DNA of 64,000 bases, from assembly GCA_018970605.1 (NCBI GenBank), contig JAGWWA010000004.1, forward strand, positions 2,289-66,288, read 5' to 3'. Every line of letters begins with the position of its first letter. Within the stretch, counting starts at the first letter, position 1. Below are positions 8,035 through 29,761 of the stretch, in pieces. The position numbers and the translations under genes are program-made. The notes beneath the pieces were generated by a model, which saw only the letters and a list, made by a program, of their open reading frames with translations, had not been told where the DNA came from and ran no database searches. The stretch is from Planctomycetota bacterium. GTDB taxonomy: Bacteria > Planctomycetota > Planctomycetia > Pirellulales > UBA1268.

Positions 8035-9003
8035 CTACGTCCGGGCCGTCCAGCCGTACGGCACGTAGCGACTCTCCACCGTGCCGTCGTCGTGGAGATC
8101 GACCACGGCGTAGCCGAAGTCGGTACCACGGTGCTTGCCCTTCCACCAACTGGCCGAGACAGCGCCGTTGCAGAGGTAGCTCACGCCACCGAACTCGATC
8201 CGTTCCACGATGTGGAGGTGGCCGCTGAGGCAGGTCTTGACGTTGGGGTGCTTCGCGAAGAGTTCCTGGAACCGCTGATGATCGACGTGCACCATGCCGC
8301 CCGACACGCTGAAGGCCGGCTTGCCATCGGTGCCCGCTCCACCTGGCTTCGCCGTGGCCAGCGGGTTGACCGAGAGGATCGGGATGTGCGAGACGATCAC
8401 CACCGGCGTGGCCGCGGGCACCGCCTCGAGGTCTCTCTGAAGCCAGTCCCACTGGGCATCGTCGATCTTGCCGATGTACCCGTCCTCGTGCGGAAAGACG
8501 CTGTCGAGGAGGACGACGTGCCAGCCGCCGCGGTTGAAACTCTCGTAGGGAAGGGCCCGGCCGAACTGCTCGCAGGCCCACTTCTTCCCGTAGAGGTGTT
8601 CGTCGCCCATGGTTCCGGCTTTTGACTTTGTCCAACCCCAGACGTCGTGGTTACCCACGACGCTTTTCACCTCGAGGCCGCAGGCGTCGGCCTTCACCTT
8701 CTTCCAGAGGTCCCACTGCGTCTGCGTGCGGTCGCGGCCCGCCTCCATGCAGTCCATGATCGTGTCGCCGCCGGTCACGATCAGGTCGACGGCGGCCTCG
8801 CCGCGCTCAGGCAGCGACTGCACGTGGGCGAAGCAGGCGGCGAGGCCCTTGGCGCTTTCGAGTTCCGGCTGGACGTGGATGTCGGTGAGGTGGGCGATCC
8901 GCAAGGACCGCCGGGCAGACGGGCCAGACTCCGCCCGGGCCAGCGAGGGCAGCGTGGCAGCACCGGCGAGTCCGGCTTTCACAAGCGAGCGACGGGTGAG
9001 CAT
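8035..9003 (-). CDS. Tat-signal metallophosphoesterase (calcineurin-like)
   Basis: Start moved to ATG 9003 (MLTRRSLVKAGLAGAATLPSLARA, a twin-arginine leader). The track ORF continues upstream into the repeat region. Motifs: HLTDIH, TGGD, GNHD, SHIP, GHLH. Confidence 0.85.
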   Translation of the reverse strand: MLTRRSLVKAGLAGAATLPSLARAESGPSARRSLRIAHLTDIHVQPELESAKGLAACFAHVQSLPERGEAAVDLIVTGGDTIMDCMEAGRDRTQTQWDLWKKVKADACGLEVKSVVGNHDVWGWTKSKAGTMGDEHLYGKKWACEQFGRALPYESFNRGGWHVVLLDSVFPHEDGYIGKIDDAQWDWLQRDLEAVPAATPVVIVSHIPILSVNPLATAKPGGAGTDGKPAFSVSGGMVHVDHQRFQELFAKHPNVKTCLSGHLHIVERIEFGGVSYLCNGAVSASWWKGKHRGTDFGYAVVDLHDDGTVESRYVPYGWTART

Positions 9004-9055
9004 CGAAGTGTCTCCTGAAAGTTCGTGACGTGTCAAAAGCGGGGGCTGGCTCAGC

Positions 9056-9129
9056 CAGGAAGCGTAACCGCGTGAGCGGTACGGCTGCCCCTCCGCCCAG
9101 CAAGCGTAACGCCGTAAGGCGTACGGCTG
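9056..9129 (+). repeat. Two family-B repeat units (consensus CAGGAAGCGTAACGCCGTAAGGCGTACGGCTGCCC)
   Basis: Units at 9056..9090 and 9098..9129. The first carries ACCGC-GTGA-GCGGT where the consensus has ACGCC-GTAA-GGCGT: two compensatory pair swaps and a GNRA-to-GNRA loop change. Confidence 0.85.
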
Positions 9130-9152
9130 AAGCACGTCGGACGTCGCCGCTG

Positions 9153-9182
9153 CCCCCATCGCTCACGCGATTGGGCTTCCTG
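9153..9182 (+). repeat. Family-A repeat, copy 3 (one substitution: GCTCAC instead of GCTTAC)
   Basis: 29/30 identity to the 30-mer. The substitution changes the minus-strand loop from GUAA to GUGA. Confidence 0.85.
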
Positions 9183-9203
9183 ACCCGCACGTCGCAACCG
9201 CCT

Positions 9204-9238
9204 CAGGAAGCGTAACGCCGTAAGGCGTACGGCTGCCC
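9204..9238 (+). repeat. Family-B repeat unit
   Basis: CAGGAAGCGTAACGCCGTAAGGCGTACGGCTGCCC, the same unit as at 9098 and in the 62.3-kb array. Confidence 0.85.
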
Positions 9239-9256
9239 GTTTCCACGGCGGGCACG

Positions 9257-9517
9257 TCACCGCGGATGGCACGGCGGACGGCGCTCGTATTCCCCGAGTC
9301 GATCCTCCCAGGCGTCCCAAAAGGCCTGCGTCATGAGCGACACGACGTCCTCGCTCGGAGGGCCTCCCAGCCGGCGGCCCATGACGATGATGATCGCACC
9401 CCGCAGACCGAGTTTGGCAAACCGCGGATCGTGAACGACGAACTCCATCAGTTCGTTGACGGCGTCGATCGTGAACACCGCGTTCGCAGCGAGCGTGCCT
9501 GGTGATGATGTCGTCAT
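9257..9517 (-). CDS. small hypothetical protein (86 aa)
   Basis: Internal ATG at 9517 preceded by GAGGA (MTTSSPGTLAANAVFTIDAVNELMEFVVHDPRF...). Composition is protein-like and I recognise no family. The longer track ORF (to 9634) has an implausible N-terminus. Confidence 0.4.
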   Translation of the reverse strand: MTTSSPGTLAANAVFTIDAVNELMEFVVHDPRFAKLGLRGAIIIVMGRRLGGPPSEDVVSLMTQAFWDAWEDRLGEYERRPPCHPR

Positions 9518-9518
9518 C

Positions 9519-9547
9519 GGTGAATCCTCGTGAAGACTCGTGAAACC
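9519..9547 (+). promoter_or_regulatory. Direct-repeat element (TCGTGA hexamers at 10-nt spacing; minus strand reads TTCACGAGTC-TTCACGAGGA-TTCACC)
   Basis: Seen directly in the 155-nt divergent gap between the small ORF and the propeller-phosphoesterase gene. Related copies are at 9641..9658, 31897..31916 and 58971..58989. The function is inferred only. Confidence 0.25.
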
Positions 9548-9672
9548 TGCCTGCCCCGCCGCCGTCGGAGTTATTTGACCCCGGAACGATGAGGATTTGA
9601 TGTTGTTCCTGGAGCTTGCGCAGCGACCGGCCACGTCGTCCGTGAGAATCTCGTGAGCGACGGCGGCACGAC

Positions 9673-12351
9673 ATGTTTCGGCGGGTACAACGGCGGTCGT
9701 TCGGCCGGCTGACCGGCGTTGGTACGATGCCGCAACGAGGTTCCCGCATGCTTGGCTCCCGACCCATTCTCAGCAGCCTGACGGTCGCGGTGCTGGCCCT
9801 GACCACCGCCCGGGCCATCCACGCCGGGGAGCCCGGTCCCCAAACGCCCGCACCGCAGACCCCCGGACCGCAACCCGACGGATCGGTAATCCTGCCGAAC
9901 CAGTGGTCGCTCCGCCCCGCAGGCCGGCAGGTTGGCGTCGGCGACTTCCCCGCGTCGATCGCCATGCACCCCAACGAGCGGCACGCCGTCGTCCTGCATT
10001 GCGGCCACGGCCCGCACGAACTCGCCGTGCTCGACGTCGTGGAGCGGAAACTGCTCTCGCAGACCCGGCTTGAAGAGTCGTTCCAAGGACTCGCCTTCTC
10101 CCGCGACGGTGACCGGCTCTGGGTGTCGGGAGGCGCCGCCGAGACGCTCCTCCGCTTCCGGTTCGTCGAGGGCACGCTGGTGCCCGACGGCTCCGTGGCC
10201 CTGCGAGACGCGAAACTGCGGGGAATCCCCTGCGGCATCGAGATCGCCGATGCCGACGGCACGGTCTACGTCGCCAACGTCTGGGGACACTCGATCTCCC
10301 GCATCCGCCCGGGGGCCGACGGCGCCGCCCCGCTCGTGGACGAGCTGCTGCTGACCGACACCGCGCCGAAGCCCGGCCCGGCGATCCCCGACTCCCCGGA
10401 ACCGTCGATCACGAAGCGGGCCGACGCACTGCTCGACAAGGCCGTCGCCAACGCCCCGCACCCCTGGACCTGCGTCGCCGACGACCGCCGCGGCCGGCTC
10501 TACGTGTCGCTCTGGGGCCAAGCGGCTGTGGCGGTGATCGACACCACGCAGTGGAGCATCGTGCAGCGCATCGCCGTCGAAGACCATCCCAACGAGATGG
10601 TGATGTCGCCCGACGGCGCGCGGCTGTTCGTGGCCAACGCGAACCGCAACAGCGTGTCGGTGATCGACCTCGACGCCGGCAAGACGACCGAAACGCTCGT
10701 CGCCACGCTCTCGGCCGACGCCCCGCCGGGCAACACCCCCAACTCCCTGGCGATCTCGACGGATGGCTCGCGGCTGTTCGTCTCAAACGCCAACATCAAC
10801 GCCCTGAGCGTCTGGGACGTGGCAGAGCAGGGCAGGGCGCGAAGCCTGGGCTTCATCCCGGTCGGCTGGTATCCGACGGCGGTCCGGCTCTCTGCCGACG
10901 GCGCGCGGCTGCTCGTGGCCAACGGCAAGGGTGTGATCTCCGATTCCAACCGCAACGGACCGCGGCCGGGCTACGACCCCGACGCCCCCACGCCGGACTA
11001 CATCGGGGGCTTGTTTGATGGCACCGTGTCGTTCATCGATCTTCCGGAGGACGAGTTCGAGAAACGAATGCACGCCTGGACGGCCCGCGCGTTCGCCTGC
11101 CGCCCGCCCCAGGCCGACGACGTGTTCACGGCCGAGGAACTGGAAGGCCATCCGATTCCTCTCCAGCCCGGCCAGCCGAGCCCGATCACCCACGTGATCT
11201 ACGTCATCAAGGAAAACCGCACCTACGACCAGGTGTTCGGCGACATGCCGGAGGGACATGGCGATCCCACGCTCTGCCTGTTCCCCGAACGCGTCACGCC
11301 AAACCATCACGCGCTCGCGCGGCAGTTCGTCCTGCTCGACAACTTCTACGTGGAGAGCGAAGTCAGTGCCGATGGCCACGAATGGTCGATGGGGGCCTAC
11401 GCCACCGACTTCGTGGAGCGTCACTGGCCGCTCTCCTACGGCCACAACAAGCGAAAGAAGTTCACCTACCCGAGCGAAGGCAACTTCGAGATCGCCCGCC
11501 CGGCGGGCGGCTACATCTGGGATCGGGCGATCGCGGCCGGGGTCAGCTTCCGCAGCTACGGGGAGTGGGTGGACAACGGCCCGACGCCCGATGCCCCCGG
11601 AAAGCCCAAGGCCAAGGCCCTCGAGGGCCGGATCGACCCGCTGTTTCGCAGCTTCGACCAGGAGTATTCCGACCTCAAGCGGGCCGACCGCTTCATCGCC
11701 GAACTGTCGCGATTCGAGAAGGAGGGCGACATGCCGCGGCTCCAGATCGTCCGGCTGCCCAACGACCACACGAGCGGTGCCAAGCCCGGCTCGCTGACGC
11801 CGACGGCGTTCGTCGCCGAGAATGATCTCGCCCTCGGCCGCTTCGTGGAGGCGGTGAGCCGCTCGAGGTTCTGGCCCACCACGGCAATCTTCGTGGTCGA
11901 AGACGACGCCCAAAATGGCTCCGATCACGTCGATGCCCATCGCACCGTGGCGCTAGTGATCAGCCCCTGGACGCGGCACGGCGTCGTCGACTCGAGCCTC
12001 TATTCGACGAGTTCGATGCTGCGGACGATCGAACTGATTCTCGGCCTCGAGCCCATGTCGCAGTTCGACGCCGCGGCGCTGCCGATGATCCGCTCGTTCG
12101 CGAAGGCGCCGGTGCTCGCGGCCTACGAGTGCCGGCCCGCGACCGTGCCGCTCGACGAGCGCAACGTGGCCGGCGCCTGGGGCGCGAAGCAATCCCTCGC
12201 GATGGACTTCTCGAAGGAGGACGCGACGGACGACCTGCTGCTCAACGAGATCGTCTGGAAGAGCGTCCGCGGGGCCGATTCACCGATGCCCGCGCCCCGC
12301 CGGGCCGCGTTCGTGTTCGCAGCGGACGAGGATGACGAAGAGCAGGATTAG
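9673..12351 (+). CDS. beta-propeller (YncE-like) / AcpA-PLC-type phosphoesterase fusion, secreted
   Basis: Signal peptide (MLGSRPILSSLTVAVLALTTARAIHA, so the true start may be ATG 9748). Repeated propeller blades (YVANVWGHSIS, LFVANANRNSVSVID, LFVSNANINALSVWD). Phosphoesterase core ITHVIYVIKENRTYDQVFGDM, LPNDHTSG, VVEDDAQNGSDHVDAHRT. Polyacidic tail ADEDDEEQD. Confidence 0.85.
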   Translation: MFRRVQRRSFGRLTGVGTMPQRGSRMLGSRPILSSLTVAVLALTTARAIHAGEPGPQTPAPQTPGPQPDGSVILPNQWSLRPAGRQVGVGDFPASIAMHPNERHAVVLHCGHGPHELAVLDVVERKLLSQTRLEESFQGLAFSRDGDRLWVSGGAAETLLRFRFVEGTLVPDGSVALRDAKLRGIPCGIEIADADGTVYVANVWGHSISRIRPGADGAAPLVDELLLTDTAPKPGPAIPDSPEPSITKRADALLDKAVANAPHPWTCVADDRRGRLYVSLWGQAAVAVIDTTQWSIVQRIAVEDHPNEMVMSPDGARLFVANANRNSVSVIDLDAGKTTETLVATLSADAPPGNTPNSLAISTDGSRLFVSNANINALSVWDVAEQGRARSLGFIPVGWYPTAVRLSADGARLLVANGKGVISDSNRNGPRPGYDPDAPTPDYIGGLFDGTVSFIDLPEDEFEKRMHAWTARAFACRPPQADDVFTAEELEGHPIPLQPGQPSPITHVIYVIKENRTYDQVFGDMPEGHGDPTLCLFPERVTPNHHALARQFVLLDNFYVESEVSADGHEWSMGAYATDFVERHWPLSYGHNKRKKFTYPSEGNFEIARPAGGYIWDRAIAAGVSFRSYGEWVDNGPTPDAPGKPKAKALEGRIDPLFRSFDQEYSDLKRADRFIAELSRFEKEGDMPRLQIVRLPNDHTSGAKPGSLTPTAFVAENDLALGRFVEAVSRSRFWPTTAIFVVEDDAQNGSDHVDAHRTVALVISPWTRHGVVDSSLYSTSSMLRTIELILGLEPMSQFDAAALPMIRSFAKAPVLAAYECRPATVPLDERNVAGAWGAKQSLAMDFSKEDATDDLLLNEIVWKSVRGADSPMPAPRRAAFVFAADEDDEEQD

Positions 12352-12380: not shown

Positions 12381-13682
12381 TCAGGCGACGAGGTCGGCGA
12401 GCGCCGAGCGGAATCGACCGAGAAAGTCGGCGATCACCTGCTCGTCGTGGGCGGCCGACAGATACAGCTTCGTGCCCATCGGATTGAGGAACACGCCGCG
12501 AGCGAACAGCCCGAGCATCAGCCGGCGGCCGAGCCCCGGAGCCGACTGCCAGATCTCGCGGGATGACGTCACCGGGCCGCGGCGAAACACGACTTGTGCC
12601 AGCGGACCGTCGCCGATCACGGTGGCCTCGATGCCCGCATCGGCGATCGCTTCTTCCATGCCGTGGCGGAGGCACACGCCAAGATGATCGAGCCGCCGGT
12701 GGAAACCCGGCACCTCGATCTCATCGAGCACGGCCAGCGCCGCGGCACAGGACACGGGGTTGCCTCCCAGCGTGGAGGCCGTCCAGACATACTCGCCACC
12801 ACCGAGCCGTTCCTCACGAACGATCTCCATGATGTCGCCGCGGCCGCCGTAGGCGCCGAGCGGATGGCCGCCACCGAGCGCCTTGCCGTATGCCACGAGA
12901 TCTGGCACCACGCCGTAGCGTTCCTGCGCGCCGGCCACGGCAAGCCGAAACCCCGTCACCACTTCGTCGAAGATCAGAATCACGCCGTGCTTCGAACAGG
13001 CAGCCCTCACCGCGTCGAGGAACCCTGGCACTGGCGGCAGGCAGCGGTGGAGAGGCTCCACGATCACGGCGGCAAGTTCGTCGGCATGGCGGGCGATCAG
13101 GTCCGACGCCGTCTCCGCGTCGTTGAACGGCGCCACGAAGACAAGGCCCGACTCCGCGTCCGGAATGCCGGCGCCAAGGGGCTCGGGGTGCGGCCAAGGC
13201 CTCATCTCCTTGCCGAAGAGGCTCGTGGTGCCGAGATCGTGCTGCCCGTGGTAGGCCCCCTCGAACTTGAGGATGCCACCGCGGCGGCGGGCGCCGCGGG
13301 CGAGCCGCACGCACTGCAGCGTGGCCTCCGTGCCCGACGCACAGAACCGCACCTGGTCGCAGGCCGGGCTGAGGGCCACGAGTCGCTCCGCGAGTTCGAG
13401 CGACCGCGTGGTGACGTGGGCGAAGTTCGACCCGTGGACAATCTGCCTGACGACCGCGTCCATCACCCGCTCGTGCGCGTGGCCGAGCAGCACCGAGCCC
13501 CAGCCCATCGTGAAGTCGAGGTATTCGCGGCCCGCGAGGTCGCGAATCCGGCACCCCCGCCCACGGTCGATCACGACGGCGAGGTCGTGGGGCACGCCGT
13601 ACTCGCCGTTGGATCCGGCGGGAAACACGCGCCAGCTTCGGTCAGCCACCTCCGCGGCGGTGGGCTCGACGATCGTCGCCAT
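12381..13682 (-). CDS. class-III PLP aminotransferase (glutamate-1-semialdehyde aminomutase-like)
   Basis: Start at ATG 13682 preceded by AAGGAG. ASGTEATLQCVRLAR, ILIFDEVVTGFR..., and the PLP lysine context AYGKALGGGHPLGAYGG resemble HemL-type enzymes. Confidence 0.88.
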   Translation of the reverse strand: MATIVEPTAAEVADRSWRVFPAGSNGEYGVPHDLAVVIDRGRGCRIRDLAGREYLDFTMGWGSVLLGHAHERVMDAVVRQIVHGSNFAHVTTRSLELAERLVALSPACDQVRFCASGTEATLQCVRLARGARRRGGILKFEGAYHGQHDLGTTSLFGKEMRPWPHPEPLGAGIPDAESGLVFVAPFNDAETASDLIARHADELAAVIVEPLHRCLPPVPGFLDAVRAACSKHGVILIFDEVVTGFRLAVAGAQERYGVVPDLVAYGKALGGGHPLGAYGGRGDIMEIVREERLGGGEYVWTASTLGGNPVSCAAALAVLDEIEVPGFHRRLDHLGVCLRHGMEEAIADAGIEATVIGDGPLAQVVFRRGPVTSSREIWQSAPGLGRRLMLGLFARGVFLNPMGTKLYLSAAHDEQVIADFLGRFRSALADLVA

Positions 13683-13716
13683 AGAGACTCCTTCGTGGTG
13701 TGGGGGCAGGCCAGCG

Positions 13717-16416
13717 TCACTCGTCGTCCTCATCATCCTCGTCGTCTCCGCCGCTGGTCGCCCATGCTGGATAGGGAGCCGCCGATCCCTTCATCGCGTG
13801 CCAGAGCACGCGGTTGAGGGCGTCTTCCGGTGCCTTGTCAACCTCGCGGAAGTTCATCGCGGCACTGGCCAGCGCGCCCGCCTTGAGCACGGGATCGAGG
13901 ATCGCCTTCGGATCGGCGTTCATCTGGTCGAGTGGCACGGTGGCCGGACGGGACACGAACGGCGTCGGGTCGGCAAGGTCGGTGAAGCAGTCGGTCATCG
14001 GGGTCGCCGACGCATCGAACTGGTTGAGCGGCGGCATGCCGAGGATCTGCCCAATCGTCCGCAGGATGCTCGTCGTGTTGTAGCGGGTGCTGACCGTCGC
14101 ACCCCGCTTCACGTGGGGGCCGGCGACGTAGACCGTCGTGCGGTAGCCGCTCACGTGATCCCAGCCATCCTGCGGGTCGTCTTCGATCGCGAAGATCGCC
14201 ATCTTCGGCCAGAATCGGCTCTTCGACAGCGCCTCGACGATCCGGCCAAGCGCCAGGTCGTTGTCGGCGACGCAGGCGGCGGGCGTGGGGCAGCGGGGGT
14301 CGGTGCCGCTGGTGTGGTCCTGCGGGAGACAGATGATCACGAGGTTTGGATAGCGTCCCTGCCGCTCGTAGTCGGCGAGTTCGCGAAGGATGAAGTCGGC
14401 CCGAAACTGGTCGGGCACGCTCATGTCCCAGCCCACGCAACCGGACGGGGAGAAGGGGCGGATCGATTCGATCGCCGGTTCGCTGGCGAACCTCACCTCG
14501 CCCGCATCGGGGCCCGCCCGCCAGCCCGCGAAGCAGGCGGCGAAGTCGGGGCGGCCCGGCCGCGTGGCATCCCGCCAGCGGACCCGCGGCATCATGAACT
14601 CGCCGTAGTTGCGGATCGTCTTGCCGTGCTTGATGGCGCTATCCCAGAGGAAGCCAGCCGGCGACCAGGCGATCGCGTCGGTGTCGGCGTCCTCCATGCC
14701 GTCGGGGTAACTCCGTGGAAAGCCCGCGAAGCTCCGCTCCAGGTAGTTCGTGGCGACGGCCGAGGTGCTCCAGTTGTGACCGTCGGCCGAGAGGATGCCG
14801 CAGCAGTAGGCGTTGTCGAGGAGCACGAACTCGCTGGCGAGCGCGTGCTGGTTGGGCGTGATCTCGGCGCCGAAGATGCAGAGTTCGGGCCGGCCGTTGC
14901 CCTGGGGCATGTCGCCGAGCACCTGATCGTACGTGCGGTTTTCCTTGATCACGTAGACCACGTGCTCGATCAGGCTCGGCTCACCGATCCGCTCGGGGAT
15001 CGCCCGTGGCGGCTGGTCAGGCCGCGGAGGGGCGAAGGCGTCGCGGATCGCTCCGGCGCGCATGTTGCGGGCCACGCGTTCCGAGAGCGGCGGTAGGTCG
15101 TCGTCGCCGGGGATCGGCAGGATCGACACCGAGCCGTGATAGTGGTGGGAGTTGAACCCTTCGGAGGCACCGCGGGGCTTTGGTTTCACGGGTAGCCCCT
15201 TGATGTTGGCAACCGCCAGCCGCTGCCGCGCCGAATCAACGACGACGGCTCCCGGATGCCAGCCGACCGGAATCAGTCCGAGCAGCTTCGTGCCCCCTTT
15301 CTCCTCCGGCTCCCAGTCCATCACCGCCACCGCGTTTTGCGCGCCGTTGCAGACATAGAGCCGCTCGCCGTCTGGGGAGAACGCCAGGGCGTTGGGCATT
15401 GCCCCGTAAAGGTCCGCCGGGGTGCGTTTCGTCCAGACCGTGTCCACCACATCGCCGGTCGTGACGTCGAGGATGCTGAGCGTGTCGCCAGCCGAGTTGA
15501 CGCAGACAACGTGGCGGCCATCCGGGGCAACGGCAAGCGCCGACGCATGCAGGCCGACGAGCACCTCGCGCACGGCATCGGTGCCCAAGTCGACGATGTT
15601 CACCGTGCCCTCGCTGGCGATGTGCCGCACGGGATCGACGCGGACTCGCGTCCCTTTGCCGGCCGGTCCCGTCAGGTCGTCAGGCCCGGGGCGGCGGCCT
15701 CCCCAGTTGCTCACGAACGCCCGGTCGCCGACGAGGATGACGTCATACGGCGCGACGCCGACGTCGAAGGTGCGGAGCACGTCGCCGGTGGCCGCGTCGA
15801 TCTCGAACAGCCGGTTCGAGAGGTTGCCGCAGACGTAGAGTCGGCGGCCGTCCGCCGAGACGGCGAGGCCGCTGGGAATCTCGCGGGCCCGCTCGGGGGC
15901 GTTGGCCGAAGGAAGCTGGATCGAATACGAGGGCACGACCGTCGCGTCGCGCACGGCAAACACCTTCACCGAGCCATGCACGTTGCTCATGTAGAGCCGG
16001 CGACCGTCGGGGGCGAAGACGAGGCCCGTGTAGCTCTGGATTGCCTGCCCGTCGGGCTTGAGATTCCGGTCTGAATCGTCGTCGCCGGCCGGCCTGAAGG
16101 CGTCATCCGCAGGAGGCTGCACGCGGCCGAGGACCGCGCCGCTGGCAGGATCGAGCAGGACGATCTCGTTCGTCTTTCCCGAGGTCGCGAGGATGCGGCC
16201 ATCGGGCGACAGGGCGAGCACCTGCGGCCGCAGCCCCGGCAGCTCGACCTGCACGCCCACCGGGGTCACGATCTGGTTGACCGGCAGCACGGTTGTGTCG
16301 CCGTCGGACCGTCCCACGACGGCGGTGATGTCCGGGCCCTCGTCGGCCGCTCGGCCGGAGGCGGAGATCAGCGCCAGCAGCGCGGCGCCAAGGTGCAGGG
16401 GGGCGATCAGCCGCAT
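13717..16416 (-). CDS. beta-propeller / AcpA-PLC-type phosphoesterase fusion, paralog of 9673..12351
   Basis: Start at ATG 16416 (MRLIAPLHLGAALLALISASGRAADE) preceded by GAGGAG. Core IEHVVYVIKENRTYDQVLGDM, LPQDHTSG, IEDDPQDGWDHVSGYRT. Polyacidic tail GGDDEDDEDDE. Confidence 0.85.
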   Translation of the reverse strand: MRLIAPLHLGAALLALISASGRAADEGPDITAVVGRSDGDTTVLPVNQIVTPVGVQVELPGLRPQVLALSPDGRILATSGKTNEIVLLDPASGAVLGRVQPPADDAFRPAGDDDSDRNLKPDGQAIQSYTGLVFAPDGRRLYMSNVHGSVKVFAVRDATVVPSYSIQLPSANAPERAREIPSGLAVSADGRRLYVCGNLSNRLFEIDAATGDVLRTFDVGVAPYDVILVGDRAFVSNWGGRRPGPDDLTGPAGKGTRVRVDPVRHIASEGTVNIVDLGTDAVREVLVGLHASALAVAPDGRHVVCVNSAGDTLSILDVTTGDVVDTVWTKRTPADLYGAMPNALAFSPDGERLYVCNGAQNAVAVMDWEPEEKGGTKLLGLIPVGWHPGAVVVDSARQRLAVANIKGLPVKPKPRGASEGFNSHHYHGSVSILPIPGDDDLPPLSERVARNMRAGAIRDAFAPPRPDQPPRAIPERIGEPSLIEHVVYVIKENRTYDQVLGDMPQGNGRPELCIFGAEITPNQHALASEFVLLDNAYCCGILSADGHNWSTSAVATNYLERSFAGFPRSYPDGMEDADTDAIAWSPAGFLWDSAIKHGKTIRNYGEFMMPRVRWRDATRPGRPDFAACFAGWRAGPDAGEVRFASEPAIESIRPFSPSGCVGWDMSVPDQFRADFILRELADYERQGRYPNLVIICLPQDHTSGTDPRCPTPAACVADNDLALGRIVEALSKSRFWPKMAIFAIEDDPQDGWDHVSGYRTTVYVAGPHVKRGATVSTRYNTTSILRTIGQILGMPPLNQFDASATPMTDCFTDLADPTPFVSRPATVPLDQMNADPKAILDPVLKAGALASAAMNFREVDKAPEDALNRVLWHAMKGSAAPYPAWATSGGDDEDDEDDE

Positions 16417-16417
16417 G

Positions 16418-17128
16418 TCAGTGTGCTCCTCTGACGCGAGTGGCCGAGGGACTTCCCTCGCGGATGTGCACCTGGGCGTTGAAGGCGATGAGCACGCGAT
16501 CCTTGCCTCCGCGGTAGGGGAGGCCGCTGTGAAGCAGATACGAGGGAAACAACACCAGCAGGCCATCTTCGAGCGGCACGTCCATCGTTTCGTTGAGGTA
16601 CTTGTTGCCGTAGTCCCGGTACAAGCCGCCGGTGATCAGCGGCGAGTAGAAGCGGCTGCCGCCGTTCGGGGCTCCAGGGGAATCGCCTCGCCCCGACTCG
16701 CCGATCTGGAGGTAGACGATCCCGCACCAGCTGCAGCCATGGTGATGATGGGCGTCGTGAAAGCCACCGTCGTTGGTGATGTGGTACCAGCTGTCCACGA
16801 ACGTCACTACGAGGTCGTGCGGCGGCACCTCCTGCCCATTGGCCACGCTCGCCGCCATCGCCAGCGACGACTCAATGAAGCGGACGAGTTTCGTGAGTTT
16901 TTCGTGAGGCTCTCGAAAGAGATCGAAACTGCTCTCGTAGAGTCCGCGACCCGACTTGGCGGCCACCGCCACGTTGCTGTCAACGGCGCTGGCCTGCCTC
17001 GATTGAAGCTCACGAAGAAAAGCTATGATGTCGGGGCCTTCGCCGGCGAACTCACGCCAGCGTCGCGTGAAGAGCATCGTCGGCCAAGCCTGAAAGCCTT
17101 GCAGATCAAATCGCTCGGTGTCGGGCAT
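16418..17128 (-). CDS. TIGR02466/PF13759-type putative 2OG-Fe(II) oxygenase-like protein
   Basis: Start at ATG 17128 (MPDTERF...) preceded by GGAGAG. WYHITNDGGFHDAHHHHGCSWCGIVYL and LLVLFPSYLLH...RVLIAFNA match the family pattern as I remember it. The stop lies 1 nt from the next gene's ATG. Confidence 0.72.
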   Translation of the reverse strand: MPDTERFDLQGFQAWPTMLFTRRWREFAGEGPDIIAFLRELQSRQASAVDSNVAVAAKSGRGLYESSFDLFREPHEKLTKLVRFIESSLAMAASVANGQEVPPHDLVVTFVDSWYHITNDGGFHDAHHHHGCSWCGIVYLQIGESGRGDSPGAPNGGSRFYSPLITGGLYRDYGNKYLNETMDVPLEDGLLVLFPSYLLHSGLPYRGGKDRVLIAFNAQVHIREGSPSATRVRGAH

Positions 17129-17159
17129 CGTTCCCTCTCCTCGGCGCACGGTGGTTTCC

Positions 17160-17807
17160 ATGACGACTCCCAGCCTGCCGGCCGACGGCCACGTCGCCCT
17201 CGCCTTCCCCACGCTCATCGGCCGTTTCCAGATCCCGGGCACGGAGGCGATCAACGCGCGGCTCACGGAGGTCGTGCTCGAACGTGAGGCCGCCCAGCCA
17301 AGCCACGACTACGCCAATCAGGGCGGCTGGCATTCCCAAAACGACCTGCTCGACTGGCCAGGGGACGAGATCGCGGCGCTTCGCGGCTGGTTTTCGGAAG
17401 GGCTCGGCCGCATGGTGCAGGCGACCGGGCAACTCCCCGAGGTGCAGGCGCGTGGCACGGCCGCCCCACGGGGCGGGTTCCGGGTGATGGCCTGGGCCAA
17501 TGTCGCCCGCCGCGGCAACTACCACCGCATGCACAATCATCCGAGCAGTTCCTGGTCGGGCTGCTACTACGTGGCGACCGCCTCGGAGGCAGGGTCGCTC
17601 GCGGGGGCGATCGAGTTCTACGACCCGCGGCCCTTCACCGAGATGGTCGATACCCCAGGCGCCCCGTACGGCCAGCGGGTCGTCATCCGTCCGGTGCCGG
17701 GGCTGCTCGTGCTGTTTCCAAGTTGGCTCTACCACTTCGTCCACCCCAGCACGGCCGACACGGCCCGAATCTCGATCGCCTTCAACGCGCAGTGGCGGCC
17801 AGCGTGA
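17160..17807 (+). CDS. TIGR02466/PF13759-type putative 2OG-Fe(II) oxygenase-like protein (paralog, divergent)
   Basis: Start at ATG 17160 (MTTPSLP...). FPTLIG, GGWHSQ, WANVARRGNYHRMHNHPSSSWSGCYYV, IEFYDPRP, LLVLFPSWLYHFVHP...RISIAFNA. Confidence 0.75.
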   Translation: MTTPSLPADGHVALAFPTLIGRFQIPGTEAINARLTEVVLEREAAQPSHDYANQGGWHSQNDLLDWPGDEIAALRGWFSEGLGRMVQATGQLPEVQARGTAAPRGGFRVMAWANVARRGNYHRMHNHPSSSWSGCYYVATASEAGSLAGAIEFYDPRPFTEMVDTPGAPYGQRVVIRPVPGLLVLFPSWLYHFVHPSTADTARISIAFNAQWRPA

Positions 17808-18829
17808 GCGGCGGCGACGTCGAGGCCCTGCGTGCCACCCTCATCTCCTCCCCAGGCCTGTTTCCGCTGGACGTGAGCCCCGCTGGCGATGCCATGCTGT
17901 TCGTCTCTCTCACGGAAGACGACTACCGCGAGGCGAGCTTTCTGGATCGCCGCATCCTGCGGCCCGAGAGCCGCACCGGCGTGGTGCCCTGCGAGCTGAT
18001 GCGGCCGTGGCTGGCGCCGCTGCCGCGGAGTTGCGACTTCATCTTCCACGTGTCGCATGCCGGCTCCACGCTGCTCTCGCGGCTGCTCGGCTGCCACGAG
18101 GGCGTGTTTTCGCTTCGTGAGCCTGCGGCGCTGCGGTCGCTCGCCAGCGCCGCCGACACCACGGCCGACGGATTGCTCGACGACGTGCTGGGGCTCCTCT
18201 CGCGGACGTTCCGGCCCGGGCAGCGACCGGTCGTGAAGGCCACGAGCGTCGTGAACCAGATCGCCGGCCGGCTGATGGGCCAGATGACCAACGCCAGGGC
18301 CCTGCTGATGACGGTGCCGGCCGAGACCTTCCTCGCCGCGGTGCTCGACGGATCGCCCGGCGACATCGCGGCCCACGCCGCCGAGCGGTTGCTGCGGTTG
18401 CAACGGATGGGTGTGGCCACGGGCACCGAGTTGGGGAGTCTTGGCGCCGGCGAAGCGGCGGCGATGAGTTGGCTGTGCGAGAACCTCGCCCTGGCCGAGG
18501 TTGCCCACGACGTACCCAGCCGGGTTCACTGGCTTGACTTCGACCAGTTTCTGGGCGAGCCCGCCTTCCATCTTGCCGCCGCGTTTGCGTTCTTCGGCCT
18601 CGACGCGGACGTGGAGCCAATCCTCGCCGGCGACGTCATGCGGCGCTACGCGAAGCGGCCCGACGTCGCCTACGACGCAGATTTTCGCAGGCGGTTGCTC
18701 ACCGACGCCCGCAGCCGGATGGGCGGCGAGATTCAGGCCGGGCTCGACTGGCTCGCGTCGATCGGCGCGGAGAATCTGCTCGCGGGCACGCCGGCGACCC
18801 TCGTCGCAGCCCCGGTGAACCGTCACTGA
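17804..18829 (+). CDS. hypothetical protein, possibly sulfotransferase-like
   Basis: The GTG start overlaps the upstream stop (GTGA). FIFHVSHAGSTLLSRLLG resembles the PAPS 5'-phosphosulfate-binding loop (xRSGSTLL) of bacterial sulfotransferases. The function assignment is weak. Confidence 0.5.
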   Translation: MSGGDVEALRATLISSPGLFPLDVSPAGDAMLFVSLTEDDYREASFLDRRILRPESRTGVVPCELMRPWLAPLPRSCDFIFHVSHAGSTLLSRLLGCHEGVFSLREPAALRSLASAADTTADGLLDDVLGLLSRTFRPGQRPVVKATSVVNQIAGRLMGQMTNARALLMTVPAETFLAAVLDGSPGDIAAHAAERLLRLQRMGVATGTELGSLGAGEAAAMSWLCENLALAEVAHDVPSRVHWLDFDQFLGEPAFHLAAAFAFFGLDADVEPILAGDVMRRYAKRPDVAYDADFRRRLLTDARSRMGGEIQAGLDWLASIGAENLLAGTPATLVAAPVNRH

Positions 18830-20769
18830 CCCACTCCGACCGCCGCAGGCACTGCGGCCGGCGCGGCAGGCGCGGCCGCCCGCTTTCGGATCGTGACGGT
18901 GTCGAAGAGCCGCCCGTCGAGGTCGAACGACTTCAACTCCAGCGTCCGGCCGTTGACGGCAGCGAACACAAAGTGGTGGGAGCGACGGACGTTGTTTTGA
19001 AACGGGGGCCGGATCGGCCCCGCCTGCTCGAGCCCGCCGCCACCGCCGCCGGCGATCATGTAGATCGTGCCGTCCTGCTCCACCGGGCGGCCCTCGCGGA
19101 TCGGCCAAGTCCGCTCGTAGGAGTGGATGTGGCCGTTCCAGACCACATCGACGCCGTAGCGGTCGAAGAGTTTCGTCAGCGGGCGAATCCGCATGTCGCC
19201 CCAGGTGCTCTTGCCCTTCCAGAGGTTCCCGTAGTCGTCCTCGTCGGAGGAGTACGACGGGTGGTGGTAGGAGACGAACTTCCAGACCACGTCGGACGTG
19301 CCGCTTCGCTCGGCGCTCTCCAGGGCCGCAAGTTCCCGCTCGAGCCACTGATACTGCTCGCTGTCCGGGCCGACGTTCTTGTTGGAGTCGATCGCGAAGA
19401 AGACCGCGTTGCCGTACCGGAACGAATAGTAGTATTCGGGGGCGGGCACGTTCATGTAGCGATAGTAGTGGTCAGCGTTTTGCTCGTGGTTGCCGATCAC
19501 CGGATACATGCACACGCGAGAGAAGAGCGGGCTCATGCTCGCAAAGAACTCGTCCACCCATTGCCGCTTGATCGGCCCCTGATCGACGAGATCGCCGGGA
19601 ATGAGCAGGAAGTTGGGCCGCAGCCGCCAGATCTGCTCGGCAAGGCTGCCGTTGACCGTCGGATTGCCCTGGGTGTCGCCCATCACGGCGAAGGCGAAGG
19701 GGGTCTCCGGCCGCGATGCGGTCTGAAACGAGCCAACGTCACCTTTGAGCCACGTCTCGCCACCCTCCTCCTGGACCAGCACCTGATAATAGTGCCCGGT
19801 CTCGGCGGCGAGCCCATCGAGAGTGGCGGCATGCAGGAGGCGATCGTCGCTCGTGGCGTCGACATCGCGATCGAATCGGGACGTCTCGCCGAATCGAACC
19901 CGCACCTTCGCTGGTCGGCTCACCTCGCACATCACGCGGATGCTCGTGCCGGTGGCGTACTGCAGGTAGGGCTTCACGAGAAACGAGAAATCACGGGCGG
20001 GGTCGGCCTGGGGTGGCAGTGCGACCCAGGCCGCGTGGTGGCCGTACTCGTGCTCCACCCAGGCGGGCTTCGCGGCCACGTCATAGATCACGGCCTGCCC
20101 GAGCCGGCCATGCATCGGAAACGACTCGTTGGAGTCGGCGTAGGCCCCGAGCACGAGCCGGGCGTCCTTCGGATAGAGAATCGGGCCATGCTGCTCGCCG
20201 GTCTCGGCGTCGAGTTTGCCGTTGACCCACAGCTGCATCGTCTCGCCGTCGTAGACGCCGCAGACGTGATACCAGCGGCTCGGCTCGATCGGCGTCGTGC
20301 CGGTGAGGTAGGTCATTCGACCGTTGCCATCGTCGGCCCCGGCGCTCGCGAGCCCGAAGGTCAAGCAGTGGTCGTTGTAGCCCAGCACCCATCCAGTTTC
20401 CGCGTCGCCGTTGTCCTGAAAGGCCGACACGATGCCGCCGAAGGGGAGCGTCTCGTCGAGGCTCACCAGTGCCGAGACCGTGATCGCGTCGGTCGGCAGC
20501 ACGTCCCGCACAGCCGCCCAATCGCCGTCGGCAACGAACATGTCCTGCGGGCCATCGAGGCGGAGGCACCGCAGCCGGCCGGCCGATTCGGCCGAGGCGT
20601 CGCCGTCGTGCCGCAGGTCGGGGCCGATCTGGGCGTCGAGCCGGCCGTCGCGGAGAAAGGCCCGCTCGAAGAGCCAATGGGCCCGTGGGTCCGGGCCCTC
20701 GTGCGACAGGGCGCGGCCGCCCGACATGACCACCGCCACGGCCGCTGCCAGCCAAAATCTTGCAAGCAT
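18823..20769 (-). CDS. LamG-domain / purple-acid-phosphatase-type metallophosphoesterase, secreted
   Basis: Signal peptide MLARFWLAAAVAVVMSGG. LamG-like block (WYHVCGVYDGETMQLWVNGKL...GRLGQAVIYD). PAP motifs GDTQ, GDLVDQG, GNHE, YHHP, GHIHSYER. Confidence 0.85.
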   Translation of the reverse strand: MLARFWLAAAVAVVMSGGRALSHEGPDPRAHWLFERAFLRDGRLDAQIGPDLRHDGDASAESAGRLRCLRLDGPQDMFVADGDWAAVRDVLPTDAITVSALVSLDETLPFGGIVSAFQDNGDAETGWVLGYNDHCLTFGLASAGADDGNGRMTYLTGTTPIEPSRWYHVCGVYDGETMQLWVNGKLDAETGEQHGPILYPKDARLVLGAYADSNESFPMHGRLGQAVIYDVAAKPAWVEHEYGHHAAWVALPPQADPARDFSFLVKPYLQYATGTSIRVMCEVSRPAKVRVRFGETSRFDRDVDATSDDRLLHAATLDGLAAETGHYYQVLVQEEGGETWLKGDVGSFQTASRPETPFAFAVMGDTQGNPTVNGSLAEQIWRLRPNFLLIPGDLVDQGPIKRQWVDEFFASMSPLFSRVCMYPVIGNHEQNADHYYRYMNVPAPEYYYSFRYGNAVFFAIDSNKNVGPDSEQYQWLERELAALESAERSGTSDVVWKFVSYHHPSYSSDEDDYGNLWKGKSTWGDMRIRPLTKLFDRYGVDVVWNGHIHSYERTWPIREGRPVEQDGTIYMIAGGGGGGLEQAGPIRPPFQNNVRRSHHFVFAAVNGRTLELKSFDLDGRLFDTVTIRKRAAAPAAPAAVPAAVGVGQ

Positions 20770-20822: not shown

Positions 20823-21926
20823 TCACTGTGCCTGGTTTTGCTCACCCAGATTCCGGGAGCCGAGTGCGCTATACGCCGCCGCATCGATCGAGTCCTGCAG
20901 GAACCGCACCGACCCGTCACCGTACGCGAACGCAGCGCCGCCGGGATGACGGCTGCCGAAGCTCAGTTCGTAGGCGGCGAAGGCAGCCGAACCCTCCGCT
21001 ACCCTCGTGGCATTCATGGGAACGCCCGTCGACCCCAGGAACTCGGACATGTCACCCTGATTGTTGGTGTCGACGTCATCGCCGCCAAACGCCCAGTGAT
21101 CCTTGCGGCCAGAGTTGGCGGCGTTGTTCTCCTTCACAATCCCCATGTCGGGCATGGTGATGAGGTCGGGCTCAGCCTCGCCGATCATGATCGTGTTCGA
21201 GGTGCCGTCCTTCACGCTCTGAATTTTTGAACCTGTGACGCCGTACGACTGACCGTTGTACTGGATGCGCTGGTGCGGAATACGGTTAACCATGATCCCA
21301 TCGAGATCCGATATCACCTCGGTCGCAGCGCCCCCCCCCCAAGGCATCGACGCCGTCTGCCGCCGCCGATCGACCGTGATCGTGCCCGAGACGCAACCAA
21401 GGTAGTTACTCGTAGCCCGCTGCTGAACCAGCCAGTTGTCGCCCGAGATGTCAGCCGCATTGGGCGGGAACTGCGACGAAGGGCAGCGGAACGTGGGAAT
21501 CGATTGCTCGCACACGTAGATGTTTCGGTAAAACTTGTTGTAGGCGCGGTTTGTAAGTGCCGCCTGACCCGTGATTCCTGGCACGCCAAAGCCCCACTGG
21601 TAGTTTCCGGTGGCGTCTTCCTGGAAGGTGAGGAGTTCGAAGAGGTTGCTCTGCTCCATGAATGGCAGGATTAACGATGACCACGCTGTGCCGACCTCAA
21701 ACTCGGCCGCCATCGGAAACCCCTTACGAGCATCGTGAAACGAGAGCGTCGCCAAGGCGACCGACTTGATGTTGTTTTGGCAACTCATGCGGCGGGCAGA
21801 CTCCCGAGCCGTCTGCACCGCCGGCAACAGCAGCCCGATAAGCGTGGCGATGATGGCGATCACCACCAAAAGTTCGACGAGCGTAAAACCGTGTAGGGGC
21901 CGGGAGCAGGACGTACCTTGCTCCAT
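20823..21926 (-). CDS. DUF1559 / H-X9-DG prepilin-like protein
   Basis: Start at ATG 21926. Prepilin cleavage/methylation motif [26 protein letters not shown], and C-terminal HPGGAAFAYGDGSVRFL (H-x9-DG). The 915-aa track ORF (to 23570) is a read-through of the antisense of the IS. Confidence 0.88.
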   Translation of the reverse strand: MEQGTSCSRPLHGFTLVELLVVIAIIATLIGLLLPAVQTARESARRMSCQNNIKSVALATLSFHDARKGFPMAAEFEVGTAWSSLILPFMEQSNLFELLTFQEDATGNYQWGFGVPGITGQAALTNRAYNKFYRNIYVCEQSIPTFRCPSSQFPPNAADISGDNWLVQQRATSNYLGCVSGTITVDRRRQTASMPWGGGAATEVISDLDGIMVNRIPHQRIQYNGQSYGVTGSKIQSVKDGTSNTIMIGEAEPDLITMPDMGIVKENNAANSGRKDHWAFGGDDVDTNNQGDMSEFLGSTGVPMNATRVAEGSAAFAAYELSFGSRHPGGAAFAYGDGSVRFLQDSIDAAAYSALGSRNLGEQNQAQ

Positions 21927-23340: not shown

Positions 23341-23386
23341 TGCGACCACCACGACCGGTGACCGCGAAGAGATGAATCCAACCGCC

Positions 23387-23409
23387 CCGCCGCCTCTTCG
23401 AGGCGGCGG
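23387..23409 (-). terminator. 9-bp GC stem-loop (CCGCCGCCT-CTTCG-AGGCGGCGG), possible terminator of the giant-protein/lipoprotein transcript
   Basis: A perfect inverted repeat is visible about 160 nt downstream of the lipoprotein stop. Only a weak T-rich trail follows on the minus strand. It could instead belong to the IS flank. Confidence 0.2.
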
Positions 23410-23566: not shown

Positions 23567-24091
23567 TCACTTTCGTACCGCCGACGCCGGAACATCGAAG
23601 TCGAAGACGTTAGCCTCGCCCTTCCGCACGACGGCCCGTTCCGGCGTCGTGCTCGGCGCGTCGTAGGTATCTGGAAACAGATTCCTTACGCCTCCTTCGA
23701 CTTCGCTCGGCTTGATGTCGGGCGCCAGCGCCTCGCCGGCTTTGTTCACCCACGCAACGAGGGTCACCTTGTATTTCCCTGCCCAGATGCCCTGTTCGCC
23801 CTGTGGATGCTGCATGACGTAGTGGCCATCGAGATCGGTGATGCCGAAACCAAAGCCGTGTCGATTCGGGTCGAAGTGCGTGGCGTCGGGAAAGAAGCCC
23901 ACCTTGCACCCGTTGACCGGCTTCCCGCCGAGTCGGACGGTGCCCTGCACCTGATGCATCGGGGGCTTCCCGCAACCGACGATCGCCGCGACGACGACAA
24001 CCAGCAGGCACACGGCACCGATCCGGCGCCGCAGGGCGTCGCCGAACCGGGCCGATGTATCTCGTTGGAGCATGTCCATGGAGGGCGTCAC
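23567..24091 (-). CDS. small lipoprotein with carboxypeptidase-regulatory-like (transthyretin-like) domain
   Basis: Lipobox AAIVGC, then VQGTVRLGGKPVNGCKVGFFP...ITDLDGHYVM...GKYKVTL, typical of the small partner genes of DUF1559 loci. It lies 12 nt downstream of the giant gene. Confidence 0.7.
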   Translation of the reverse strand: MTPSMDMLQRDTSARFGDALRRRIGAVCLLVVVVAAIVGCGKPPMHQVQGTVRLGGKPVNGCKVGFFPDATHFDPNRHGFGFGITDLDGHYVMQHPQGEQGIWAGKYKVTLVAWVNKAGEALAPDIKPSEVEGGVRNLFPDTYDAPSTTPERAVVRKGEANVFDFDVPASAVRK

Positions 24092-29584: not shown

Positions 29585-29761
29585 GAGAGACTCCCGGTTT
29601 CGCGTAGGGCGTTGGGTGAACGAAGACGAACAGGCGACGTTATGAACTTCTTCGATGAGGACATCACCAGAGTTCCGTGAGTTTTCGATGAAAATCTCGT
29701 AGCGGTCTGACAAGGGACATCGCCCGTTCGAGCTACCGAAGGGCTTTTTCGAGGGATCTGT

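Follow-up and report, generated by a model that had tools for sequence, protein, structure and literature searches.

A divergent trio of two PF13759 oxygenase genes and a sulfotransferase-fold gene in a phosphorus-acquisition island of Planctomycetota

What do cytoplasmic oxygenases and a sulfotransferase-like enzyme do beside secreted phosphoesterases? The question is raised by a 64,000-nucleotide stretch of DNA from a Planctomycetota bacterium of the Pirellulales (assembly GCA_018970605.1, contig JAGWWA010000004.1, positions 2,289 to 66,288), referred to here as the window. An original prediction grouped five of its genes into one set, namely two TIGR02466-type oxygenases (OxyA and OxyB), a propeller-phosphoesterase (PPE), a class-III aminotransferase (AT) and a sulfotransferase-like protein (ST), and connected them with lipid head groups during phosphate stress. 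We found that the conserved unit is a divergent trio, in which OxyA is transcribed away from OxyB and ST, and which combines two cytoplasmic PF13759 oxygenases with a divergent sulfotransferase-fold enzyme. This trio has been inherited across Planctomycetota together with genes for exported phosphoesterases and surface proteins, and it may form a hydroxylation-then-sulfation module. The window itself has a G+C content of 64–72% and carries DUF1559/H-X9-DG prepilin-type genes typical of Planctomycetota. Its nearest genome is a freshwater metagenome-assembled genome labelled 'Planctomycetota bacterium', with 91% ST identity and about 92% DNA identity.

A conserved divergent trio and its exported neighbours

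OxyA (16418..17128, minus strand; 236 aa) is a PF13759 protein resembling Fe(II)/2-oxoglutarate (2OG) oxygenases, lacks a signal peptide, and is the first gene of an operon with PPE (13717..16416, minus strand; 899 aa) and AT (12381..13682, minus strand; 433 aa). In the other direction, OxyB (17160..17807, plus strand; 215 aa), a TIGR02466/PF13759 Fe(II)/2OG oxygenase, is translationally coupled to ST (17804..18829, plus strand; 341 aa), which has a GTG start. All five open reading frames (ORFs) were called independently with the same lengths on four public contigs that encode an identical OxyB protein, and on these contigs the genes have the same order and orientation. The junctions described in the original prediction were also borne out by the sequence. 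The stop codon of OxyB and the start codon of ST overlap in GTGA (17804-17807), the OxyA stop (TGA, 16420-16418) is followed by a single c and then by the PPE ATG at 16416, upstream of which lies AGGAG, and the 34 nt between the PPE stop (13717) and the AT ATG (13682) contain GAAGGAG. The divergent start codons of OxyA and OxyB are separated by 31 nt (17129..17159). What had to be redrawn was the five-gene boundary, which is too narrow: it omits LamG-MPE (18823..20769, minus strand; 648 aa), a gene convergent with ST that overlaps its stop by 7 nt, as well as other conserved partners.

An ST profile was used to scan one genome per species, resulting in at least 571 relatives, and the best 80 loci were examined with ±10-kb flanks by ORF calling, phmmer searches with the window proteins and all-against-all clustering. 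Genes of PF13759 adjoin ST in 26 of the 31 planctomycete loci, nearly always in the arrangement OxyA (minus), OxyB (plus), ST (plus), with ST in every case directly next to OxyB and read in the same direction. These 26 trio loci, which serve as the denominator for all partner counts, come from Pirellula, other Pirellulaceae, Gemmataceae and the clade of the window, at 41–55% ST identity. By comparison, 9 of the 26 have a PPE-type gene within 10 kb, and AT was found at two genome loci. It is therefore the trio, and not the set of five, that constitutes the conserved neighbourhood.

The most constant neighbours of the trio all encode exported proteins, and they had been overlooked in the original prediction. 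A DUF1559 pseudopilin gene, which has a partner encoding a lipoprotein of about 170 aa, is present in 18 of the trio loci, orthologues of LamG-MPE (865–1,500 bits) in 16, and orthologues of a giant Big_5/lamin-tail (LTD) protein (about 1,700–2,200 aa) in 14. The last of these genes lies directly downstream of OxyA in most Pirellulaceae, and the protein, of about 1,900 aa with Big_5, LTD and PATR domains, is often followed by a PEP-CTERM protein. Between ST and LamG-MPE lies PPE, a secreted enzyme of the alkaline phosphatase superfamily, or no gene at all. Counting all three kinds, a secreted phosphoesterase is found within 10 kb in 20 of the 26 loci. The same set is retained in at least five gene orders. 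For example, seven genes run on one strand in Limnoglobus (locus L036), in the order s170, DUF1559, PF13759 oxygenase (Oxy5), cupin, ST, Oxy5 and LamG-MPE, and cultured Aureliella helgolandensis, whose locus lies near 4.26 Mb of CP036298, has the DUF1559, lipoprotein and Big1783 genes on one strand and OxyB and ST further along on the other. Because the gene set was kept through rearrangement, functional linkage is favoured over inherited synteny.

Some settings of ST differ in their accessory genes. In Phycisphaerales (L046, 1298-4966; L025) genes encoding a PAPS-reductase domain (PAPS, 3'-phosphoadenosine-5'-phosphosulfate) and an FAD/NAD(P)-binding protein flank ST, and not PF13759 oxygenases. 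In Gemmataceae a ureidoglycolate-lyase-like cupin is encoded between Oxy5 and ST in L036 (9330-9980) and just downstream of ST in L032 (10975-11739).

The enzymes of the trio and their relatives

OxyB scored 88.1 bits against TIGR02466 (NCBIfam cut-off 62.5 bits) and 84.2 bits against PF13759 (Pfam cut-off 27 bits), and thus passes both. OxyA, with 58.6 bits, is above the PF13759 cut-off but reached only 43.7 bits for TIGR02466. The family calls of the original prediction mostly stood, with the qualifications that OxyA is TIGR02466-type only loosely and that the sulfotransferase-like character of ST comes from fold and profile comparison, not from Pfam. PF13759 was the only Pfam match of the two oxygenases apart from a weak one to PF13640, and the Pfam scan gave no PhyH or TauD match for either. 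Conservation of the OxyA motifs GFHDAHxHxGCSWCGIxY, FPSxLxHS and RxxIAFN is 95% or higher over 23 orthologues; for the OxyB motifs YHRMHNHP, WLYHFVHP and RxSIAFNA it is complete or almost so. Both orthologue sets have an invariant H-x-x-H-x-H cluster, a distal His and, about 11 residues on, an Arg (RxS in OxyB, RxL in OxyA). The usual HxD/E of 2OG oxygenases is replaced by His in these two families, and the conserved residues are candidate metal ligands.

The AlphaFold2 model of OxyB (pLDDT 86) has the double-stranded beta-helix fold of the solved PF13759 proteins and superposes best on two structures of its own family, 3BVC (E = 3.9e-11, TM 0.65–0.68) and 2RG4 (E = 3.9e-10), in Foldseek searches. 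Both are labelled 'uncharacterized' in the PDB, and, as had been stated in the original prediction, no substrate is described for TIGR02466/PF13759 in the searchable literature; membership therefore gives no function, and OxyA in any case falls under the TIGR02466 cut-off. We found no functional study of TIGR02466, PF13759, 2OG-FeII_Oxy_5 or DUF5690 in the literature searched, nor a description of a fixed pairing of this family with a sulfotransferase-fold gene. The next-best folds are bacterial and HIF prolyl-4-hydroxylases (E of about 1e-7, TM 0.54–0.63), represented by Pseudomonas putida PPHD, which acts on EF-Tu, and human PHD2, along with the nucleoside-modifying oxygenase PolD. The identity to the prolyl-4-hydroxylases is only 12–17%, and their HxD corresponds to the H-x-x-H-x-H cluster of the PF13759 proteins.

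No Pfam or NCBIfam model matched ST above threshold. Weak matches to PF13469 were seen in 15 of 25 family members (best E = 2.6e-07), and PDB searches by sequence only, using the single sequence or a profile, returned nothing significant. A fold search and profile-profile comparison worked. The AlphaFold2 model of ST, built on 25 homologues, has a pLDDT of 90.6 and a pTM of 0.91, and all 50 PDB matches listed by Foldseek are sulfotransferases, counting retinol dehydratase, which has the same fold; there were no kinases among the top structural matches listed. The best match was the CurM sulfotransferase (4GBM; E = 3.9e-07), followed by TPST1/2 and 3-OST, with TM scores of 0.44–0.56. With hhalign, ST aligned over 185 columns (E = 1.9e-4) with the canonical sulfotransferases that are fused to tetratricopeptide repeats (TPR-Sulfotransfer_3). 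In this alignment the GSTL loop, His98 and Glu106 of ST fall on the invariant phosphosulfate-binding loop, His and Glu of TPR-Sulfotransfer_3, and the alignment with the CurM sulfotransferase gave the same register, placing E106 on the Glu of its PPE motif. In TPST2 and the CurM enzyme the Glu that aligns with E106, about 20 residues after the loop, is the catalytic base. The invariant residues of ST are H82, H85, G87-S88-T89-L90, R105-E106-P107, K145 and S148. ST thus shares with the Sulfotransfer_3 and TPST-like enzymes the fold, the GS(T)TL phosphosulfate-binding loop, the invariant Glu and a Lys/Ser pair further on, but differs from them in having an invariant His in the loop, and not Arg or Lys, and an additional N-terminal segment of about 75 residues with an invariant ASFLDxR motif.

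The ST family is large, has no Pfam model and ranges over Planctomycetota and Alpha- and Gammaproteobacteria. A full HMMER search of 1.84 billion representatives returned 3,118 clusters with E ≤ 0.001, of which 907 had E ≤ 1e-30, and nearly all of the 150 clusters listed are single-domain proteins of 320–360 aa. At 25 loci in Proteobacteria, ST is divergent from or beside an oxygenase of the PF13640 prolyl-hydroxylase type. The two are adjacent, separate genes in L067 and L069, and one protein of 622 aa is a fusion of ST with such an oxygenase (P0258; L115, 1802-3670). In Steroidobacteraceae and Caulobacteraceae, ST is divergent from the PF13640 gene (PiuC/prolyl-hydroxylase-type) in large clusters. 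These clusters also contain a third PF13759 subfamily, two to three TPR-Sulfotransfer_3 proteins, TPR-fused Asp/Asn beta-hydroxylases, a retropepsin-like protease, a TonB-dependent receptor and tandem genes for small secreted Cys-containing proteins. No phosphonate genes were present at the proteobacterial loci that pair ST with an oxygenase. Hence what is constant across the two phyla is ST with at least one prolyl-hydroxylase-like oxygenase, usually next to genes for envelope or secreted proteins. ST is a sulfotransferase-fold protein with an intact loop and Glu and with a His substitution, and it is coupled to prolyl-hydroxylase-like oxygenases in both phyla.

Several of the proteobacterial clusters (L034, L039, L051, L058, L080 and other loci) resemble a multi-enzyme hydroxylation/sulfation system that is undescribed. 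Just downstream of such clusters lies a pair of MbnB/TglH/ChrH (DUF692) and DUF2063 genes with a small upstream ORF (L037, 6386-8370, with equivalents in L044, L051 and L058). This arrangement is of the type found for ribosomally synthesized and post-translationally modified peptides, and we treated it as a separate system. The ST genes of Rhizomicrobium-type genomes were at one point assigned to a polysaccharide locus with a NusG-like antiterminator; this was rejected when the neighbours turned out to be the housekeeping genes nusG-rplKA-rpoB.

Phosphorus genes, partners and candidate regulatory repeats

The secreted phosphoesterases beside the trio in the window are of two types. PPE has a signal-peptide-like N-terminus (MRLIAPLHLGAALLALISASGRAADEG), a visible ENRTYD motif, and a seven-bladed YVTN/YncE-type propeller (YVTN/lactonase matches) followed by a C-terminal AcpA/phospholipase C (PLC)-family domain. 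The latter scored 42.3 bits against PF04185 (cut-off 23), aligning with model positions 254-355 only. Its paralogue PPE2 (9673..12351, plus strand; 892 aa), also a propeller fused to PF04185, scored 57.9 bits over positions 101-355. Both C-terminal domains match AcpA (2d1g) weakly, and PPE differs from the known AcpA/PLC enzymes by its N-terminal propeller and by falling under every NCBIfam equivalog cut-off. For the phosphocholine-specific phospholipase C model TIGR03396 there was no match with PPE, and PPE2 scored 28.2 bits against a cut-off of 580. LamG-MPE is an exported protein with a LamG domain (Laminin_G_3, 63.8 bits) and a metallophosphoesterase domain (Metallophos, 59.7 bits). The PDB sequences closest to it are those of plant purple acid phosphatases and the diphosphonucleotide phosphatase 3zk4, from which it is set apart by the LamG domain and by scores below every NCBIfam equivalog cut-off.

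Beyond LamG-MPE lie the DUF1559/H-X9-DG prepilin-type gene (20823..21926, minus strand; about 367 aa; PF07596 147.6 bits, with N_methyl and TIGR04294), its small lipoprotein-like partner s174 (23570..24091, minus strand; about 170 aa), which has no Pfam match and falls into conserved cluster 11, where a lipobox-like motif, GCGKPPM, is present, and Big1869 (24107..29713, minus strand), a giant exported protein with Big_5, LTD, PATR and reelin-like domains. An IS110-family transposase (PF02371/PF01548; 21918-23072, plus strand) is inserted between the lipoprotein and DUF1559 genes. The site lies within a break in colinearity (21887-24399) at which the closest relative, L005, lacks about 1.6 kb. 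The prepilin segment of the DUF1559 frame is present with no obvious start codon nearby, so its 5' end is uncertain owing to the adjacent insertion sequence, which may have damaged the 5' end or the promoter.

AT is, on sequence criteria, a class-III aminotransferase of the HemL-like branch (PF00202, 212 bits). A role as housekeeping HemL was ruled out by the equivalog cut-offs (TIGR00713, 303.4 against 527.3; NF000818, 323.2 against 398), and the second-best named family, GntE, at 286 bits, is also below its cut-off. Near the trio, AT occurs only in L005, the close relative of the window, in L006, and on near-identical metagenome contigs. In a separate metagenome scan with AT as the query, contigs at 89–98% identity kept PPE-AT, in part extended by PPE2 and the metallophosphoesterase gene described below. 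Orthologues at 70% identity are divergent from a GlpT/PgtP-family major facilitator superfamily (MFS) transporter gene, which is homologous to the transporter gene at 38537-40114 of the window, and have no oxygenase or ST gene nearby. AT is therefore linked to phosphorus but is no partner of the trio, and it would be a clade-specific addition tied to imported amino-organophosphorus compounds.

The window is a phosphorus-acquisition island, with about six further phosphoesterases in all. Additional metallophosphoesterases, besides those already described, are encoded at 55980-58640 and at 8035-9159; the latter gene (8035..9159, minus strand; 374 aa; Metallophos 49.5 bits) is divergent from PPE2, and its type is kept beside PPE2 in L087 and L100. 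GDPD (61275-62249) and a GDPD_2-like protein (31911-32912) are present as well. The phosphonate cluster at 38537-43655 comprises the GlpT/PgtP-family MFS transporter, an HpnZ-like alcohol dehydrogenase (TIGR03366), an HD-domain oxygenase (Phn-HD), the phosphonatase PhnX and a DAO-type protein. PhnX scored 304 bits (cut-off 220), and Phn-HD scored 213.6 bits against the TIGR03276 cut-off of 214.6. The Phn-HD gene is next to PhnX, 22 kb from the trio, without an adjacent PhnY*-type partner. With this many phosphorus-acquisition genes around it and secreted phosphoesterases as partners of the trio, the phosphate-stress context proposed in the original prediction is plausible. Two other features of the island stand apart: the DAO-type FAD oxidoreductase occupies the usual place of PhnW in the phosphonate cluster, and EutB and EutC, the subunits of ethanolamine ammonia-lyase, are fused in an 898-aa ORF (33995-36688, minus strand) with an N-terminal extension of about 190 residues.

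Direct repeats provide a lead to shared regulation. The 513-bp spacer between the metallophosphoesterase gene and PPE2 (9160-9672) contains a triple GTGAA direct repeat with a 10-bp period, and GTGAR tandem repeats with 10–11-bp spacing (9520..9657, plus strand; GTGAATCCTCGTGAAGACTCGTGAA at 9520-9544 and GTGAGAATCTCGTGAG at 9642-9657) form a candidate response-regulator site there. Exact GTGAR-N5/6-GTGAR occurs four times in the 64-kb window against about 0.84 expected, three times upstream of PPE2 and once, as GTGAR-N6-GTGAR, inside OxyA (16893..16908, plus strand), at a distance of 267 bp upstream from where OxyB starts. The equivalent OxyA position also carries a match in L005 and L006. In Pirellulaceae the spacer between OxyA and OxyB is 35–476 bp long and contains phased direct repeats. 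The same or related repeats with 11-bp phasing were found in this spacer in L010, L017, L020, L022, L033 and L038, and in some cases 11-bp-phased repeats also precede the genes for Big1900, the lipoprotein or LamG-MPE in this family. Phased direct repeats are typical of OmpR/PhoB-family regulators. An earlier motif, two copies of GWGAAnnTTnC, was replaced by the GTGAR-N5/6-GTGAR count, as it had been derived from the spacers where it scored best and was weakly enriched elsewhere. A possible minus-strand ORF of about 86 aa (MTTSSPGTLAANAVF...) starts beside the repeat in 9160-9672. At gathering thresholds, Rfam returned nothing across the whole window, and a sigma-70 scan of 9-21 kb gave 0 promoters, with terminators at chance level.

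What the trio may act on

The explanation that we favour, while giving it somewhat less than an even chance, is a cytoplasmic hydroxylation-then-sulfation module in a phosphorus-scavenging locus. The whole set would be switched on under phosphate limitation. OxyA and OxyB would hydroxylate a shared substrate, and ST would then move sulfate, presumably from PAPS, to a hydroxyl group of that substrate. The substrate might be a protein or peptide bound for export, conceivably one of the co-encoded exported proteins, that is modified in the cytoplasm prior to secretion. A protein or peptide is suggested by the nearest fold relatives and by what accompanies ST in Proteobacteria, namely TPR-fused paralogues, a protease and small secreted proteins. 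AtsB/anSME enzymes, which modify exported sulfatases in the cytoplasm before secretion, provide a precedent; these modifiers are likewise encoded beside exported hydrolases of the alkaline phosphatase or related superfamilies, but they belong to other enzyme families and catalyse other chemistry. We know of no modified residue in bacterial AcpA/PLC enzymes or purple acid phosphatases. In the maturation of plant PSY and RGF/GLV peptides, which involves TPST and a prolyl-4-hydroxylase, and in the RaxST-RaxX system of Xanthomonas, TPST-like and prolyl-hydroxylase-like enzymes act on one secreted peptide. The trio may follow the same logic, and the proteobacterial ST clusters too hold a protease and small secreted proteins. 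The likeness is one of analogy only, and RaxST/RaxX has no homology-level link to the trio.

The lipid explanation of the original prediction, in which head groups are stripped by a PLC-like enzyme and replaced through a phosphorus-free amino- or sulfolipid made by the aminotransferase and sulfotransferase, found no specific support. The phosphorus-scavenging context is real, PPE belongs to a family (PF04185) that contains phospholipase C, and the presence of GDPD genes and ethanolamine ammonia-lyase is in keeping with head-group catabolism generally. Moreover, the substitution of a sulfate-bearing lipid (sulfoquinovosyldiacylglycerol) for phospholipids under phosphorus stress is well established. 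Nevertheless, no acyltransferase, glycosyltransferase, SqdB-, OlsB- or BtaA-like gene, or any other lipid-synthesis gene, is found among the annotatable conserved partners. Whereas the PlcP of lipid remodelling is a cytoplasmic enzyme, PPE is an exported propeller fusion, and it leaves the equivalog for phosphocholine-specific PLC unmatched; AT is absent from 24 of the 26 trio loci; and the folds of ST and OxyB resemble those of enzymes that modify proteins or small molecules, not lipid enzymes. We consider this explanation very unlikely. A second possibility stays closer to phosphorus: the trio might catabolize an imported organophosphorus compound, with the PF13759 proteins hydroxylating an (amino)alkylphosphonate, as PhnY* and TmpA do for their HD-domain oxygenases, and with ST handling an intermediate that bears a phosphate or nucleotide instead of transferring sulfate. 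PhnY*/PhnZ and TmpA/TmpB likewise combine a 2OG oxygenase with an HD-domain oxygenase in a phosphorus-scavenging context, and genes for such compounds do approach the trio. Phn-HD (TIGR03276) lies between AT and PPE in L006, Phn-HD, PhnX and a DUF5690 transporter adjoin the trio in L013, in L008 and L015 a DUF5690 transporter gene is immediately beside ST, orthologues of AT are found with the gene for a GlpT-family organophosphate transporter, and the replacement of Arg by His in the ST loop would allow a non-canonical ligand. However, an HD oxygenase, PhnX or DUF5690 gene is near the trio in only about 5 of the 26 loci (L006, L008, L013, L015 and L035), so that the HD gene is no constant neighbour. 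PF13759 is unrelated to the PhyH/TauD families of known phosphonate hydroxylases, and in the window the trio lacks the adjacent PhyH/TauD hydroxylase and HD oxygenase that define the PhnY*/PhnZ arrangement. Furthermore, the structural matches of ST are to sulfotransferases and not kinases, and the proteobacterial pairing does without phosphonate genes. This catabolic role is quite unlikely in our judgment.

The trio could also make or modify a small sulfated metabolite or polymer, for instance one with a phosphorus-free anionic group, or with sulfate as a leaving group as in the CurM reaction, while its exported neighbours are only co-regulated. The best structural match of ST, the CurM sulfotransferase, acts on a small acyl-ACP (acyl carrier protein) intermediate, PolD is among the top matches of OxyB, and the PAPS-reductase-domain gene of Phycisphaerales and the cupin gene of Gemmataceae would suit a metabolite. 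Yet no gene for a carrier protein, a synthase or an exporter of such a product has been conserved alongside the trio, and the proteobacterial clusters, with their TPR-fused paralogues, protease and small secreted proteins, speak for proteins or peptides. Taken together, this makes a metabolite unlikely, though we would not dismiss it. Finally, there may be no functional link whatsoever, the trio being placed beside phosphoesterase and surface-protein genes by chance or by a shared ancestral gene order. ST is found elsewhere in quite different neighbourhoods, DUF1559 genes are very numerous in planctomycete genomes, which renders their adjacency less surprising, and the window contains a second set of giant-protein, DUF1559 and metallophosphoesterase genes without the trio. 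Such an absence of any link is improbable given that the same set is kept in at least five orders and orientations across Pirellulaceae, Gemmataceae and the clade of the window at the ST identities given above, and in L036 as a single co-directional array, a pattern not expected from inherited synteny alone.

A number of observations weigh against the hydroxylation-then-sulfation module that we favour. The donor of ST, presumably PAPS, and even its reaction type are predictions, because an invariant His (H85) takes the position of the catalytic Arg/Lys in the xRSGS/TTL loop of sulfotransferases, PF13469 scored 16.6 bits against a threshold of 27, and the hhalign probability for TPR-Sulfotransfer_3 was just 47%. 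The window showed no gene for PAPS synthesis, the planctomycete loci yielded no candidate for a precursor peptide, and we know of no precedent here for sulfated or hydroxylated proteins crossing Sec. ST occurs without PF13759 genes in some Pirellulales and Phycisphaerae and stands alone beside nusG-rplKA-rpoB in Rhizomicrobium-type genomes, a setting that is uninformative; the fusion P0258 was seen on one assembled contig only, so it may have arisen as a frameshift artefact. The second set (43680-58640, minus strand), with a DUF1559 gene, a giant protein of 3,682 aa and a Metallophos-CBM96 phosphoesterase, has neither an oxygenase nor ST. Phosphate regulation was drawn from the gene neighbourhood only, and we found no functional study of phosphate limitation in planctomycetes in the literature searched. 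The GTGAR repeats are a lead to shared regulatory sites at most, and the repeat in OxyA coincides with conserved codons for EPHEKLT and may reflect coding constraint. As an observation in its own right, the second set repeats the exported-protein arrangement in this genome independently of the trio.

The trio is made up of enzymes from known superfamilies. What is undescribed is the ST family, the His-type loop of its members, and the constant association of ST with PF13759 oxygenases in a phosphorus-scavenging locus. The most far-reaching version of the hydroxylation-then-sulfation module would make the trio a previously unrecognised bacterial system that hydroxylates and sulfates exported proteins or peptides before secretion. 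Its targets would be the co-encoded phosphate-scavenging and surface proteins in planctomycetes, and in Proteobacteria small secreted proteins that TonB-dependent receptors take up or sense. We regard this version as a long shot, but it would provide the first function for the TIGR02466 family. PF13759/TIGR02466 is widespread, common in marine cyanobacteria and also present in cyanophages, and has two solved structures. Its oxygenases are now tied to a fixed partner family and to a defined setting, that of secreted phosphoesterases in a phosphorus-acquisition island, and their function can be tested in cultured Aureliella helgolandensis. Should a protein prove to be the substrate, the trio would represent a hydroxylation/sulfation modification that is new for prokaryotes; with a metabolite as substrate, it would represent a new pathway of phosphate stress in a phylum about whose phosphorus physiology little is known.

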